Shown: positions 12,897 through 17,432 of the stretch, piece after piece
Layout: the number at the start of each line of letters is the position of its first letter
How positions within the stretch are numbered: position 1 is the first letter of the stretch
Sequence record: MN655998.1
DNA: 64,000 bases
Source of the DNA: Escherichia phage E26
Strand: one strand, 5' to 3'
Made by a program: the position numbers and the translations under genes
Notes under the pieces: model-generated
The model's input: the letters and a program-made list of their open reading frames with translations, nothing else
What the model was told of the DNA's origin: nothing
The model's database searches: none

Positions 12897-14948
12897 TTAC
12901 ATTTTAAATTTATCTGGCATTGCGTCTACAGATACCAGATCAGCGATAAGCTGACGTAGAGTTGCCTTATCTGCTTTCTTACGTTCGGTTTTAGCTTCGC
13001 TAATGAAGCTGGAGAAAGACAGGTCAGAAGCAGGTTTAACAACACCTTCACGGATGAATGCATCACCGTCCGCGATCATCTCGCCAGATTCTTGTAATGC
13101 TGCCAGTTCATTTTTGTTCATAATATGTGCCTCAATGTAATAAGTTTCTTGTGAATCCGTCGATGCCGTAGCACGAGTTACCGTATCAAAGGATAACACA
13201 ACACCGCGAGGAAGTAAAATCTCGCATTCTTTGTAAGCAAATGCTTTGTTACCTACTGGCAAGACAGGGATGTTTTCCGCGCCAGCAATGGAGAAAGCAA
13301 CATTAGCGCCACCTTCACCGCGAGAGCCAGCCATAGAATCAACACCAGCAACGGCACTAGCCACGTTTGCATTCCAGCCGCCAAAAATGTTAGGTGCAAG
13401 GGAAGTGCTCACATAGTTTTTAAAGTAAAACGCTTTTTGCTTACGTGCAGTTTCCCACATTTGCGACCGGAAGTCCATACCACGATACAGAATAGTACCC
13501 GGATCAAGTTTAACTCCATAGTTGGAGAAGGCATTATCCAGTGCATCGCACATCTTGACCAATTCTTCTGGATCTGCGATGCCTTCAAACTCTTCCAGCT
13601 TACGATCAGTTAGGAAGTTGTTCATATTGATGTATGCTGCATCGGCATATTCGCTCAATACAAAACCTTCCGCGCCAGGCAGATCAAGATCAATATCTGC
13701 CATCATTTCACCCATGTTGCTAGCAATTGCTTCAAACATACCGGAAGCAACATTACGTAGGGCATCGGTTTTAATCTGTGTGATGTGACTACGCAGCATT
13801 TCAGCTTTTACATCTGCTGGCATAGACTGGTCTACTCGATCCATTGCCAGGGCGGTGATCTTGTTTTCGAATACTTCCTCGCTCATGATTTCTTTTAAGC
13901 GTTTGATTGATGCTGCGATAACTTCCGCAGACAACGGATCATATTGATCCTGAACTTTTACCAGTTCGCTTACTGCGTATTTTGCATCGGCTTCGCTTTC
14001 AAAAATAGTACGCATGAAACCATAGCGAGTGATAATATCACTTGTCCAGTCATTCAGAGAACGGGCGGTTGAACGTTCTAAGGCTTGACGATCAATCAGA
14101 GTATTAAACTGTTTCTTAGGTTCGGCTTCGGTGATATCTTCTTCTGGTTTAAGATTAATTTTTTCTGGATGATTCACGTAGTCGCTGTTATATGTCGCTT
14201 GAGTTTTCAGCATTTCTTCTTTAGTCAAACGAGATTTAGCCGCTACGCGTTGTTCTGCTTCCGCGTTTCGTTCTTCTTCTGACACAAGACTAGCCGCATA
14301 TGCCTCATCTTTAGTCAGAGATTCACCAGTAGCCTTAGATACCCAGCGATCACCTAAATCACTTTCTACTTTAGTGAACAAGGATTCATCAAGTTTAATC
14401 CCTTTAATCTTATCAATCGCCATCCCGCGACGCTTGACAACAACTAAAGCGATCTTTTTGCTGGTCATTACTTCCTGCTGGAATACTTCAAACTTCGGTG
14501 TACGACGCACCAAACGCTCTATAACGCGCTTAACCAGTTCGGTCTTACCTTTCATGCGGGATACGTTAAAACGGAACATAACAGCGTCTAATTGCGCTTT
14601 ACGGGCTGTTTCCATAACCACATCAAAAGCACTTGCCATAACTGCAATCGGGTTATCGCCTAGACCATTTTTAAGCTGTACAATACGACCGCTTTTGTTC
14701 ATTTCGCACAGTACAACATGTGCGGTTTTGTCACCCATACGAATGATTTTAGGTGTTTTGTTGGTGAAGTTACAAAGACGGACAATCACATCTTTATCGC
14801 GTGTCTGTACTGCAAAAAGCTGTTTAGGATTCTGCTTAGGCTTTAAGCACTGTACCGGAGCAATACTGCCAAAGTTTTCTTCCTCTTCCGTCAACAGCCA
14901 TTTCTCGAAAGATTCAATCATTAGATCGTCGATTTCTAAGTTAAACAT
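12897..14948 (-). CDS. alt: Alt ADP-ribosyltransferase (head-packaged, T4 Alt-like)
   Basis: 683 aa; C-terminal LYRGMDF, STS, ECEILLPRG ART motifs; size matches T4 Alt. Confidence 0.8.
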   Translation of the reverse strand: MFNLEIDDLMIESFEKWLLTEEEENFGSIAPVQCLKPKQNPKQLFAVQTRDKDVIVRLCNFTNKTPKIIRMGDKTAHVVLCEMNKSGRIVQLKNGLGDNPIAVMASAFDVVMETARKAQLDAVMFRFNVSRMKGKTELVKRVIERLVRRTPKFEVFQQEVMTSKKIALVVVKRRGMAIDKIKGIKLDESLFTKVESDLGDRWVSKATGESLTKDEAYAASLVSEEERNAEAEQRVAAKSRLTKEEMLKTQATYNSDYVNHPEKINLKPEEDITEAEPKKQFNTLIDRQALERSTARSLNDWTSDIITRYGFMRTIFESEADAKYAVSELVKVQDQYDPLSAEVIAASIKRLKEIMSEEVFENKITALAMDRVDQSMPADVKAEMLRSHITQIKTDALRNVASGMFEAIASNMGEMMADIDLDLPGAEGFVLSEYADAAYINMNNFLTDRKLEEFEGIADPEELVKMCDALDNAFSNYGVKLDPGTILYRGMDFRSQMWETARKQKAFYFKNYVSTSLAPNIFGGWNANVASAVAGVDSMAGSRGEGGANVAFSIAGAENIPVLPVGNKAFAYKECEILLPRGVVLSFDTVTRATASTDSQETYYIEAHIMNKNELAALQESGEMIADGDAFIREGVVKPASDLSFSSFISEAKTERKKADKATLRQLIADLVSVDAMPDKFKM

Positions 14949-15479: not shown

Positions 15480-15511
15480 GTTTGATTCTCCTTTCGTTTC
15501 GGTATGTGTGC

Positions 15512-15540
15512 ATTATAGGGGATCACCGATCCCCTGTCAA
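15512..15540 (-). promoter_or_regulatory. PeSL early promoter (TTGACA - GGGGATCGGTGATCCCC - TATAAT)
   Basis: Perfect sigma70 consensus hexamers, 17-nt palindromic spacer. Confidence 0.65.
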
Positions 15541-16068
15541 CAACTTTTTTGAATTATTTTTTAATTGCTCATCTTGTAATAGAGCAATAACATGCTGGCG
15601 ATGTTCTTCCGATTGAGGCACACCGAAAAAGTTTGTTTTGTAGAAATATTCTAATCGATCTTCTCGTGTGCTCTCTTCCATCATGATCGCGGGTAGTCCG
15701 AGATTTCGGAAACGTCGCTTTTCTGCTGGCGTAAAATCACTGTAATACAACATAGAATCATCATTACCAGCAATGCTAAACTCATCTTTCATAAAGGAGA
15801 ATATTGCGTTTAAACGCTGTTTACCGTCCACGATTTCGATCTCATAGCGAGAGCCATCATCAATCTTAGCCATTGCGATAGCACCAACCGGAAAATCATT
15901 AATCAGGTTTTCGATAAACATACGTTTGTTTTCGGTGTCCCATACCAAAGGACGCTGATAATCTGGGTTCATGTTGATATAGCCATCTTCTAACCACGCC
16001 TCATAAACAGAGATGACAAAGTTTTTAGTATTGGTATAGTAACGGCGTTTAGGCGTTAAACGGTTCAT
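15523..16068 (-). CDS. DUF262 (ParB/GmrSD N-terminal-like) domain protein
   Basis: YQRPLVWD ... FPVG ... IVDGKQRLNAI match the DUF262 signature (DGQQR box); start set at MNRLTPK with AGGAGA RBS. Confidence 0.55.
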   Translation of the reverse strand: MNRLTPKRRYYTNTKNFVISVYEAWLEDGYINMNPDYQRPLVWDTENKRMFIENLINDFPVGAIAMAKIDDGSRYEIEIVDGKQRLNAIFSFMKDEFSIAGNDDSMLYYSDFTPAEKRRFRNLGLPAIMMEESTREDRLEYFYKTNFFGVPQSEEHRQHVIALLQDEQLKNNSKKLLTGDR

Positions 16069-16069
16069 G

Positions 16070-16399
16070 TTATAGTCTCCTGAATGGATCATCACGTAAA
16101 TCAATATCTTTTAAGAACTCATCCCATGAATGGCGGATATTGTTCTTAATTCTCCAGATAAGCGCAGGGATTGAACGCTCTCCCATCTGGAAGTAAGGAT
16201 CATATGATCCATATGCCCAATATGCTACTACAATTCCACAATCAGCGCAATAATATTCTATTTCACTTGCTGGCGACCAAAGTCCATCAATATGATCGGT
16301 GATCCTGCTTTCGATGTTATGGCTATGGCAATCAGGGCAACGGATGCAATGACCTTGTTTATCGTAATTTGACGTTAGCGAATACTTAAACAATCTCAT
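16070..16399 (-). CDS. Cys-rich putative zinc-finger protein
   Basis: 109 aa; CIRCPDC ... CADCG pairs; translationally coupled to flanking genes. Confidence 0.5.
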   Translation of the reverse strand: MRLFKYSLTSNYDKQGHCIRCPDCHSHNIESRITDHIDGLWSPASEIEYYCADCGIVVAYWAYGSYDPYFQMGERSIPALIWRIKNNIRHSWDEFLKDIDLRDDPFRRL

Positions 16400-17115
16400 T
16401 ATAGATCCTTATTTGCTTCAAATACTGCCTTTGCGAATCCTCGCGGGGTAAGTGACCTTATAGTCTTTGTTTTCGTTCCTTTCCCGCCTAGCTTAGAATG
16501 CTGTTTACTGTACCCTTTATTAATCTGCAACGGTTTCTTTTCTGGCATTATAAAGCCTTGTCCGGTCCATAAGCAAGTCCTTTTCGGGTACATATCACGG
16601 GCGGCAATATACTCAGGAAAAGTAGGATGTTTATCATCTTCCGGCAAATAACCGCCATATTCCCACGGATGGAACATATAATCAGGCTTACGCCACATGC
16701 TAGAGATAACGCTTACAGGATTCTCTATCATGTAGGGAACTCCTAGCCATTCACCCAAATAAGCGGTTATTTTAGCTGCCCGTACATCATGAACTTGAAT
16801 CAATGGTCCTTGCTCTCGTTTCTTTCGTTCAAAGTGTGCAGCGCCACTAACAGCTAAATTGGTGCACGGTGGGAATGCAAATATAATATCCGGTTTCCCC
16901 CATTCAAGGTCCATTGCTCTTTCTAGCCAGTTCAAATCAATCCATGTGTTTACATATGTAATGTTTGGATGTTCAAATCGGGTATTATATTTTTTGTATG
17001 TACCGTGGTCGCCATCGTCAGCATTAAAGCAGATCACCTTATGACCTGCTTTAGCCCATTCTAACCCCATTATCCCCGATCCGTCAAAGTTGCAGAATAT
17101 TAATTTTTGTTTCAC
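16399..17115 (-). CDS. compact C5-cytosine-methyltransferase-like protein (motifs I, IV, VI)
   Basis: FDGSGIMG (FxGxG), FPPCTNLAVSG (PC motif), ENPV (ENV motif) in canonical order; only 238 aa, no obvious TRD. Confidence 0.4.
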   Translation of the reverse strand: MKQKLIFCNFDGSGIMGLEWAKAGHKVICFNADDGDHGTYKKYNTRFEHPNITYVNTWIDLNWLERAMDLEWGKPDIIFAFPPCTNLAVSGAAHFERKKREQGPLIQVHDVRAAKITAYLGEWLGVPYMIENPVSVISSMWRKPDYMFHPWEYGGYLPEDDKHPTFPEYIAARDMYPKRTCLWTGQGFIMPEKKPLQINKGYSKQHSKLGGKGTKTKTIRSLTPRGFAKAVFEANKDL

Positions 17116-17363
17116 GCTGCCCCCATTGGTTTGATAGTAACAGAATCTAAAAGACCTTTGTTAGCCAGTTCGCGGCAAGTTTTCAGATCCGCAACTTCCC
17201 AGCCAGCCGCAATCAGGTTATCAATCAGGCTGTTAGCAATTTCTTCGCTCATGAAAGAGCACTGTTTGCCGATGGTGTAGCGTACACGCTGTAATTTCAG
17301 TTTACGGAAGCCTTTAACGTTCAGGTCTTTAGCGATTTTCTTTGCGGTTTCGATGTTAGCCAT
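17112..17363 (-). CDS. hypothetical early protein (83 aa), first gene of four-gene operon
   Basis: ORF track; ATGA overlap with downstream gene; PeSL promoter upstream. Confidence 0.5.
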   Translation of the reverse strand: MANIETAKKIAKDLNVKGFRKLKLQRVRYTIGKQCSFMSEEIANSLIDNLIAAGWEVADLKTCRELANKGLLDSVTIKPMGAA

Positions 17364-17403
17364 TGTTTGATTCTCCTAAGTGGTATCTCGTCTTGATGGT
17401 TGT

Positions 17404-17432
17404 ATTGTAGGGGAGTTATCCTCCCCTGTCAA
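17404..17432 (-). promoter_or_regulatory. PeSL early promoter (TTGACA - GGGGAGGATAACTCCCC - TACAAT)
   Basis: Hexamers with 17-nt palindromic spacer. Confidence 0.6.

Follow-up and report, generated by a model that had tools for sequence, protein, structure and literature searches.

The 64,000-nucleotide stretch of the Escherichia phage E26 genome analyzed here (sequence record MN655998.1; hereafter, the window) carries on its minus strand, at positions 15523 to 17432, a unit of four genes that encode an 83-amino-acid (aa) protein, a 238-aa cytosine-C5 DNA methyltransferase (MTase), a 109-aa zinc-ribbon protein, and a stand-alone DUF262 domain. RB49-like (Krischvirus) coliphages are already known to carry this unit as an early accessory cassette, and its genes have been present in public genomes since the sequencing of RB49. 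It is bounded by PeSL elements, each of which consists of an early promoter plus a stem-loop. Our results make it probable that the cassette is a collection of independent modules, including a working short Dcm-like methylase, rather than a dedicated system. Cassette shuffling, promoter to promoter, would have brought together four independent phage accessory modules. The features of the unit, in the direction of transcription, are as follows.

17404..17432, minus strand: PeSL promoter from which the unit is transcribed, TTGACA-17-TACAAT, whose spacer contains a GGGGAG/CTCCCC hairpin
17112..17363, minus strand: gene 1, 83 aa; phrog_14908; equivalent to RB49p190
16399..17115, minus strand: gene 2, 238 aa, short Dcm-like cytosine-C5 DNA methyltransferase; phrog_757; equivalent to RB49p189
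16070..16399, minus strand: gene 3, 109 aa, four-cysteine zinc-ribbon protein; phrog_2993; equivalent to RB49p188
15523..16068, minus strand: gene 4, 181 aa, stand-alone DUF262/ParB-Srx-fold domain; equivalent to RB49p187 (172 aa)
15512..15540, minus strand: next PeSL, TTGACA-17-TATAAT, with a GGGGATC/GATCCCC hairpin; contains the gene 4 stop codon

The distribution of the gene families is consistent with an assembly of independent accessory genes mediated by PeSL elements. Phage records number 1,515 for the methylase family, 279 for the zinc-ribbon family, and 324 for the DUF262 family; the three are adjacent only in Krischvirus, and elsewhere each has other neighbors. The methylase gene lies next to a helicase gene and unrelated small genes in phages herni and KarlJaspers, next to genes for an HNH protein and a SIR2 protein in one metagenomic phage, and near a Lar-type restriction-alleviation gene in another. 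The DUF262 gene is accompanied by unrelated small genes in phages KP15 and leE and by recET in Salmonella prophages, and zinc-ribbon homologues are found beside primase and dUTPase genes in phage 9g and beside frd/td in phage wV8. These neighborhoods lend no support to a coupled methylase-DUF262 mechanism; a partnership specific to the Krischvirus lineage is possible. The preliminary description of the locus had proposed, from the adjacency of the two genes, epigenetic self-protection or anti-restriction through both proteins. This proposal was not supported, as the families are neighbors only in Krischvirus and published chemistry on Krischvirus DNA (TB34 and RB49) reveals no bulk cytosine modification.

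All three cytosine-C5 MTase motifs previously attributed to the 238-aa product were found: FDGSGIMG (motif I, residues 10 to 17), FPPCTNLAVSG (motif IV, residues 81 to 91), and ENPV (motif VI, residues 131 to 134). They stand in canonical order, and their cores (F10-D-G12-S13-G14, P83-C84, and E131-N132-P133-V134) are invariant in the family alignment. Further key residues are K178, which like the catalytic C84 and E131 is invariant in 29 aligned family sequences, and the C-terminal R220-S-L-T-P-R-G-F-A. The protein matched phrog_757, "DNA methyltransferase," over residues 1 to 237 (7.2e-90). Its homologues number 7,155 in a database clustered at 90% (2,020 representatives at 50% identity), almost all of them 210 to 260 aa long. 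By tblastn, the 1,515 phage records, in which the gene is annotated variously as Dcm or C-5 cytosine methylase, include Krischvirus, Drexlerviridae, Dhillonvirus, rV5-like, phAPEC8-like, N15-like phiKO2, and Klebsiella Webervirus phages. The 238-aa protein has the C5-MTase fold, and the DNMT3 catalytic domain was the best match both for it and for the KarlJaspers/K42 enzyme discussed below.

Like M.HhaI, M.HaeIII, and Escherichia coli Dcm (PF00145), the 238-aa protein has a Rossmann-type catalytic fold and the motif I-IV-VI order; unlike these canonical enzymes, it is approximately 90 to 230 residues shorter and appears to have no separate recognition domain. The earlier remark that it is too short to include a normal target-recognition domain is correct as anatomy: approximately 36 residues separate the motif VIII-like strand (K178-W183) from the R220 motif, and this segment, instead of varying, is strongly conserved throughout the family. 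Nonetheless, published evidence on a homologue indicates that the family is active. An hhalign comparison with E. coli Dcm recovered motif IV alone at default settings and the full motif order, with very low probability, at greedy settings; the greedy comparison also included M.HhaI. The C-terminal RSLTPRGFA aligned with motif IX (RRLTPRE) by sequence, again with low probability. By position, the invariant I-R-S-L-T-P containing R220 is possibly motif X instead, a position occupied by N304 in M.HhaI and, in CmoX, which depends on carboxy-S-adenosylmethionine, by R350, which contacts the carboxymethyl group. A CmoX-like carboxymethyl transfer was considered for the 238-aa protein and was not supported, with 5-methylcytosine (5mC) detected for a homologue and no CmoA gene in the operon (open reading frame [ORF] list and Pfam scan).

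The activity of the family is documented for a close relative. The window protein shares 55% identity along its entire length with the Dcm-like MTase of phage KarlJaspers (Bas06), a protein of 236 aa encoded at MZ501090 40087-40797 whose annotation reads "Dcm-like C5 cytosine methyltransferase" (55 to 56% for herni and KarlJaspers). According to a preprint on retron Ec86, all four escapers (4/4) of the Drexlerviridae phage K42, a KarlJaspers/Bas06 relative, had changes either within a 711-bp "Dcm" gene or immediately upstream of it, and expression of K42 dcm was toxic only in Ec86-carrying cells. In the same preprint, liquid chromatography coupled to mass spectrometry (LC-MS), with detection against a standard, showed more 5mC in the multicopy single-stranded DNA (msDNA) of the retron with the wild-type K42 enzyme, which was modeled on DNMT3A, than with a C82A/E128A/K175A/K176A mutant. 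These four residues align with C84, E131, K178, and R179 of the window protein. The window gene thus shares with the KarlJaspers/K42 gene, the trigger of retron Ec86, its family, architecture, length, catalytic Cys, ENP Glu, and KK/KR pair; it differs in belonging to another phage family and in lying in a PeSL cassette rather than next to a helicase gene. The searches placed the 238-aa protein in an MTase family, through both phrog_757 and a 55%-identical homologue with published in vivo C5 methylation. With reasonable confidence, the name short Dcm-like C5 cytosine methyltransferase can be given to the gene, which should not be regarded as a truncated or dubious methylase; the family already has a link to retron Ec86 sensing.

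By family analogy, Cys84 of the PPC motif would attack C6 of a flipped-out cytosine, Glu131 of the ENP motif would protonate N3, and the methyl group of S-adenosylmethionine (SAM) would pass to C5. With a minimal, DNMT3-like recognition region, the enzyme may methylate phage DNA sparsely and site specifically, possibly at a CCWGG-like site. Marks of this kind would shield the DNA from some type II restriction enzymes and would also constitute a signal sensed by retron Ec86. Available data on Krischvirus DNA limit its extent. Phage TB34, which carries the operon and is 97.7% identical to the window across the region, had no detectable modified nucleoside by high-performance liquid chromatography-mass spectrometry (HPLC-MS) in the Durham collection study, and RB49 DNA is cut by HpaII and NheI, both of which are blocked by 5mC. 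Thus, methylation of all cytosines or of CCGG is excluded, and any methylation of Krischvirus DNA must be sparse. A CCWGG-like site, with approximately 0.5% of cytosines methylated by our estimate, is compatible with both the TB34 and the RB49 data.

In the same collection study, phage SAP, which is 99.96% identical to TB34, carried hydroxymethylcytosine and glucosyl-hydroxymethylcytosine. In the 5.6 kb around the operon, the only differences between SAP and TB34 are a 79-bp duplication of the PeSL that lies immediately downstream of the DUF262 gene and a few single-base insertions or deletions outside the operon. Since the operon genes are identical in both phages, the operon cannot explain the difference in modification and was rejected as its cause. 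The duplication (positions 1682 to 1760 of the compared stretch of SAP [OZ034687], corresponding to approximately 15500 to 15545 of the window) creates a 38-aa ORF.

The DUF262 protein is a complete ParB/Srx-fold domain that ends at residue 181 with a long C-terminal helix (residues 154 to 178). Its description as a stand-alone DUF262 domain is borne out: YQRPLVW (residues 37 to 43) and IVDGKQRL (residues 79 to 86) are present, and the YQR, DGKQR, and NFxGVPQSxxH motifs are invariant across 42 family sequences, corresponding to Y37-Q38-R39, D81-G82-K83-Q84-R85, N146, G149, Q152-S153, and H156 of the 181-aa protein. A profile search returned 4,699 relatives. The best 120 of these 4,699 are 160 to 214 aa long, nearly all 160 to 193 aa, and the best relatives are encoded by T4-like phages of Klebsiella, Enterobacter, Cronobacter, Yersinia, Pectobacterium, Morganella, and Pantoea and by enterobacterial genomes; the copies in Salmonella are carried by Rac-like prophages, where they are downstream of recE/recT. 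Among PADLOC models, the protein matched the N-terminal halves of the defense proteins NsnA (1.4e-20) and PD-T4-2_A (5e-12), and the sole PADLOC match to a restriction enzyme, REase_II over residues 28 to 150, corresponds to the DUF262 domain itself. Pfam, phrog, profile, and PADLOC scans detected no nuclease family in any of the four cassette proteins, no DUF1524/HNH domain fused or adjacent to the DUF262 domain, and no cognate endonuclease gene or signature among the cassette neighbors; a type II restriction-modification system was rejected on the last ground.

The 181-aa protein shares the ParB/Srx fold and the YQR and DG(K/Q)QR nucleotide-binding motifs with GmrS of the GmrS/GmrD pair (prophage CT596), GmrS1 of ECOR17, and the DUF262 domains of BrxU, SspE, and DndI, and, like GmrS and GmrS1, it has no nuclease domain. 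Unlike all of these, it is much smaller, has no cognate nuclease gene nearby, and is encoded by a virulent phage; it also belongs to a compact phage/prophage family of its own, apart from GmrS, BrxU, and their kin. It has the N-terminal DUF262 NTPase domain with a DGQQR-type motif that is found in GmrSD enzymes, and membership among them is ruled out by the missing nuclease domain. Because the nucleotide-pocket residues are invariant across the family, gene 4 most likely encodes a nucleoside triphosphate (NTP)-dependent switch or enzyme, which may act on DNA or on a protein partner in a role separate from that of the methylase; interference with host DUF262-type defense proteins is one candidate role. 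A conserved small partner encoded upstream of DUF262 was rejected, since in KP15 and leE the genes coupled to DUF262 on its upstream side bear no relation to the zinc-ribbon gene (15 to 18% identity, with a hydrophobic C terminus).

Several observations weigh against a collection of independent modules with a working methylase. The Pfam C5-MTase model (PF00145) matched residues 10 to 100 of the 238-aa protein below threshold (14.3 versus 22 bits; E = 0.028), searches of the PDB with the protein returned nothing by phmmer and nothing significant by profile (best E, 0.82 to 0.87), and the canonical motif X (GN) is not evident in alignments to Dcm and HhaI. The evidence for activity comes from the K42 homologue and would extend to the Krischvirus enzyme by analogy, and the CCWGG specificity of the K42 enzyme was itself assumed from E. 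coli Dcm rather than mapped (retron Ec86 preprint). CCWGG is depleted in the window (29 sites observed versus 66 expected under a maximal-order Markov model of the whole window, 1 to 64000), which does not discriminate between the hypotheses, and the failure to detect modification in TB34 virion DNA would fit equally well an enzyme whose target is not the phage genome. Moreover, each of the three families is found in 56 Krischvirus records (at ≥95% identity for the zinc-ribbon and DUF262 proteins and ≥90% for the MTase); as they are present together, the genus provides no presence/absence variation for testing their independence. DNMT2 provides a precedent for a C5-MTase-type enzyme with an RNA substrate, and the short methylase could act elsewhere than on the phage genome (on host DNA, hairpin or single-stranded DNA such as msDNA, or RNA) or transfer a group other than methyl. 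The failure to detect a modified base in TB34 virion DNA and the cutting of RB49 DNA by methyl-sensitive enzymes speak for this, as do the shortness (approximately 36 residues) and conservation of the recognition region and the fact that retron msDNA is the sole demonstrated substrate of the family. Nonetheless, we regard it as unlikely. Methylation at a CCWGG-like site could escape HPLC and would not block HpaII or NheI, DNMT3A uses SAM despite an Arg at the motif X position, the operon has no CmoA-like gene, and the LC-MS analysis of the K42 homologue identified 5mC specifically.

In a more specific version of the earlier proposal, the methylase and DUF262 genes could also form a functional pair, in which the methylase marks phage DNA and the nuclease-less DUF262 protein poisons or titrates DUF262-containing, modification-dependent host enzymes, such as GmrSD and BrxU, liable to attack 5mC DNA. 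Wherever Krischvirus records carry the two genes, these are in a single transcription unit, and BrxU cuts 5mC DNA (PMC13390438). TB34, which carries both genes, is insensitive to BrxU; however, in the Durham collection study, BrxU left purified TB34 DNA uncut in vitro, so this insensitivity lies in the DNA and not in an inhibitor. In ECOR17, both GmrSD2 and the nuclease-less GmrS1 are required, which shows that proteins consisting of DUF262 alone can work with GmrSD proteins, and the resemblance of gene 4 to the N-terminal halves of defense proteins points the same way. On the other hand, the adjacency is not kept outside Krischvirus: KP15, leE, and the Salmonella prophages have DUF262 without the methylase, and the Drexlerviridae phages (herni and KarlJaspers) and the metagenomic phage contigs examined have the methylase without DUF262. 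In addition, the DUF262 domains of defense proteins are extremely divergent, making a universal poison subunit unlikely, and the invariant pocket residues fit a protein that binds or hydrolyzes nucleotide better than a passive decoy. On balance, such a pair seems quite unlikely. A related idea is that the DUF262 protein is an NTP-dependent counter-defense factor that forms mixed assemblies disabling host BrxU/GmrSD-, SspE-, and DndI-type proteins, paired in Krischvirus with the methylase so that 5mC marks are tolerated. The GmrS1/GmrSD2 precedent, by analogy, makes an anti-type-IV role possible, but we give this specific version little credence. If it were true, the approximately 4,700 small phage and prophage proteins would represent a new class of anti-type-IV inhibitors built from a defense domain. 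Least probable, in our judgment, is a phage-borne defense or exclusion module in which the DUF262 protein, perhaps with the zinc-ribbon protein, acts as a GmrS-like sensor against competing phages with modified DNA. The original GmrS/GmrD is prophage encoded as separate subunits, short DUF262 genes are found among the accessory genes of Salmonella prophages, and the protein matches PADLOC defense models; yet the operon has no DUF1524/HNH nuclease partner, the zinc-ribbon protein carries no nuclease signature, the genes upstream of DUF262 in other phages are mutually unrelated, and the gene lies in a virulent phage under an early promoter.

Two modest questions become testable: which site is recognized by a very common minimal methylase almost devoid of a recognition domain, and whether it marks the phage genome; and what role the equally common stand-alone DUF262 domain plays in phages and prophages. 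Both questions are general to the families and not particular to the window.

The structure of the unit agrees with shuffling at PeSL elements. These elements, described in RB49 and phi1, are consensus sigma-70 promoters with an embedded G/C hairpin (Arbiol et al. 2010, PMC2839356). The PeSL promoter reported at 17404..17432, ahead of the four coupled genes, was verified as a consensus TTGACA-17-TACAAT whose spacer contains a G/C-rich hairpin (−19.4 kcal/mol; z = −5.5). Both it and the element at 15540..15512 fit the consensus promoter at 11 to 12 of 12 positions and fold as hairpins, as PeSL elements do. Perfect TTGACR-N17-YAYAAT sites number 11 in the window, where chance would give 0.19, and every one is on the minus strand; they span 15265 to 44582, 7 of them lie between 15265 and 19162 in a dense PeSL/hyperplastic region, and at least 4 of the 11 have G/C hairpins inside the spacer. 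Promoter and terminator activities were demonstrated for PeSL copies other than the two that flank the cassette (PMC2839356). By analogy with these copies, the cassette would be expressed early, given its promoter type, and the PeSL at 15540..15512 is likely to be both an attenuator or terminator of the unit and the promoter of the next gene. The cassette resembles the PeSL-plus-ORFan cassettes of RB49 and phi1 (Arbiol et al. 2010; Comeau et al. 2014) in its identical composite element, nonessential genes, and hyperplastic location, and in that relatives vary by whole-gene or whole-PeSL units; it differs in that, instead of one ORFan, it holds four or five genes that are translationally coupled.

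The preliminary description had given a four-gene operon with ATGA or 1-nucleotide junctions. The four ORFs of 83, 238, 109, and 181 aa are as described, as are the one-base overlap between genes 2 and 3 (TAATG) and the one-base spacer between genes 3 and 4, whereas the first overlap, in which the start codon of the 238-aa gene overlaps the preceding stop, is GTGA and not ATGA. Most relatives, including RB49 and TB34, carry a fifth gene, ORF189.1 (81 aa), between genes 1 and 2. In RB49 and TB34, ORF189.1 is similar to the methylase gene at its 5′ end and in its first codons. The window, JSE, and G2248 share the recombinant junction GGGGCAGCGTGAAACAAAAATTAAT (window positions 17105 to 17125, minus strand), which deletes ORF189.1 exactly; as a result, the methylase starts with GTG in the window and with ATG in RB49. 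The DUF262 gene starts with the ATG at 16068 and ends at 15523; a longer ORF from a TTG at 16104, proposed by the ORF tool, was rejected, having no homologue support. The RB49 stop codon is lost from this gene (AAT AAC TAA to AAT AAT TCA), which therefore reads nine extra codons into the next PeSL hairpin, and this extension is of low confidence in the structure model.

The 109-aa product, described earlier as a zinc-finger protein, indeed matched zinc-ribbon models, and only these; it has four cysteines in two CxxC pairs. Homologues occur in 9g-like and Felix O1-like phages, where they are not methylase adjacent. A split methyltransferase, with the zinc-ribbon protein recognizing DNA in trans, was rejected for this reason, as well as because the short methylase has no zinc-ribbon partner in any non-Krischvirus neighborhood examined and the K42 enzyme acts when expressed alone. 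Residues 43 to 76 of the 83-aa protein resemble one helical hairpin of the pentatricopeptide/tetratricopeptide repeat type. This hairpin matches designer pentatricopeptide proteins with whole-sequence E values down to 2e-9, with no single stretch passing alone, and the protein has a weak PADLOC match to positions 722 to 785 of the defense reverse transcriptase RT_UG35 (E = 1.9e-5).

From end to end, the 2.3 kb around the cassette has 97 to 98% nucleotide identity with its counterparts in Krischvirus G2248, JSE, the Makalu phages, and RB49, and 56 records cover at least 80% of it. The equivalents are RB49p190, p189.1, p189 ("DNA methyltransferase"), p188, and p187 in RB49 and EpJSE_00197 to 00194 in JSE; annotations among the Krischvirus relatives are hypothetical, DNA methyltransferase, or DUF262. 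The hyperplastic regions of RB49 and phi1 hold accessory genes flanked by PeSL elements (PMC2839356), and the cassette sits in one of these regions. Just downstream of the PeSL gene series, in the window as in RB49 and JSE, lies a gene for a 683-aa Alt-like RNA polymerase ADP-ribosyltransferase (12897-14948, minus strand). Besides CCWGG, other restriction sites are strongly depleted in the window relative to the same Markov expectation, namely, GAATTC (0 observed versus 17.3 expected), CTGCAG (0 versus 5.9), GGCC (28 versus 70), and CCSGG (10 versus 32), whereas GATC and GCTAGC occur at undiminished frequency.

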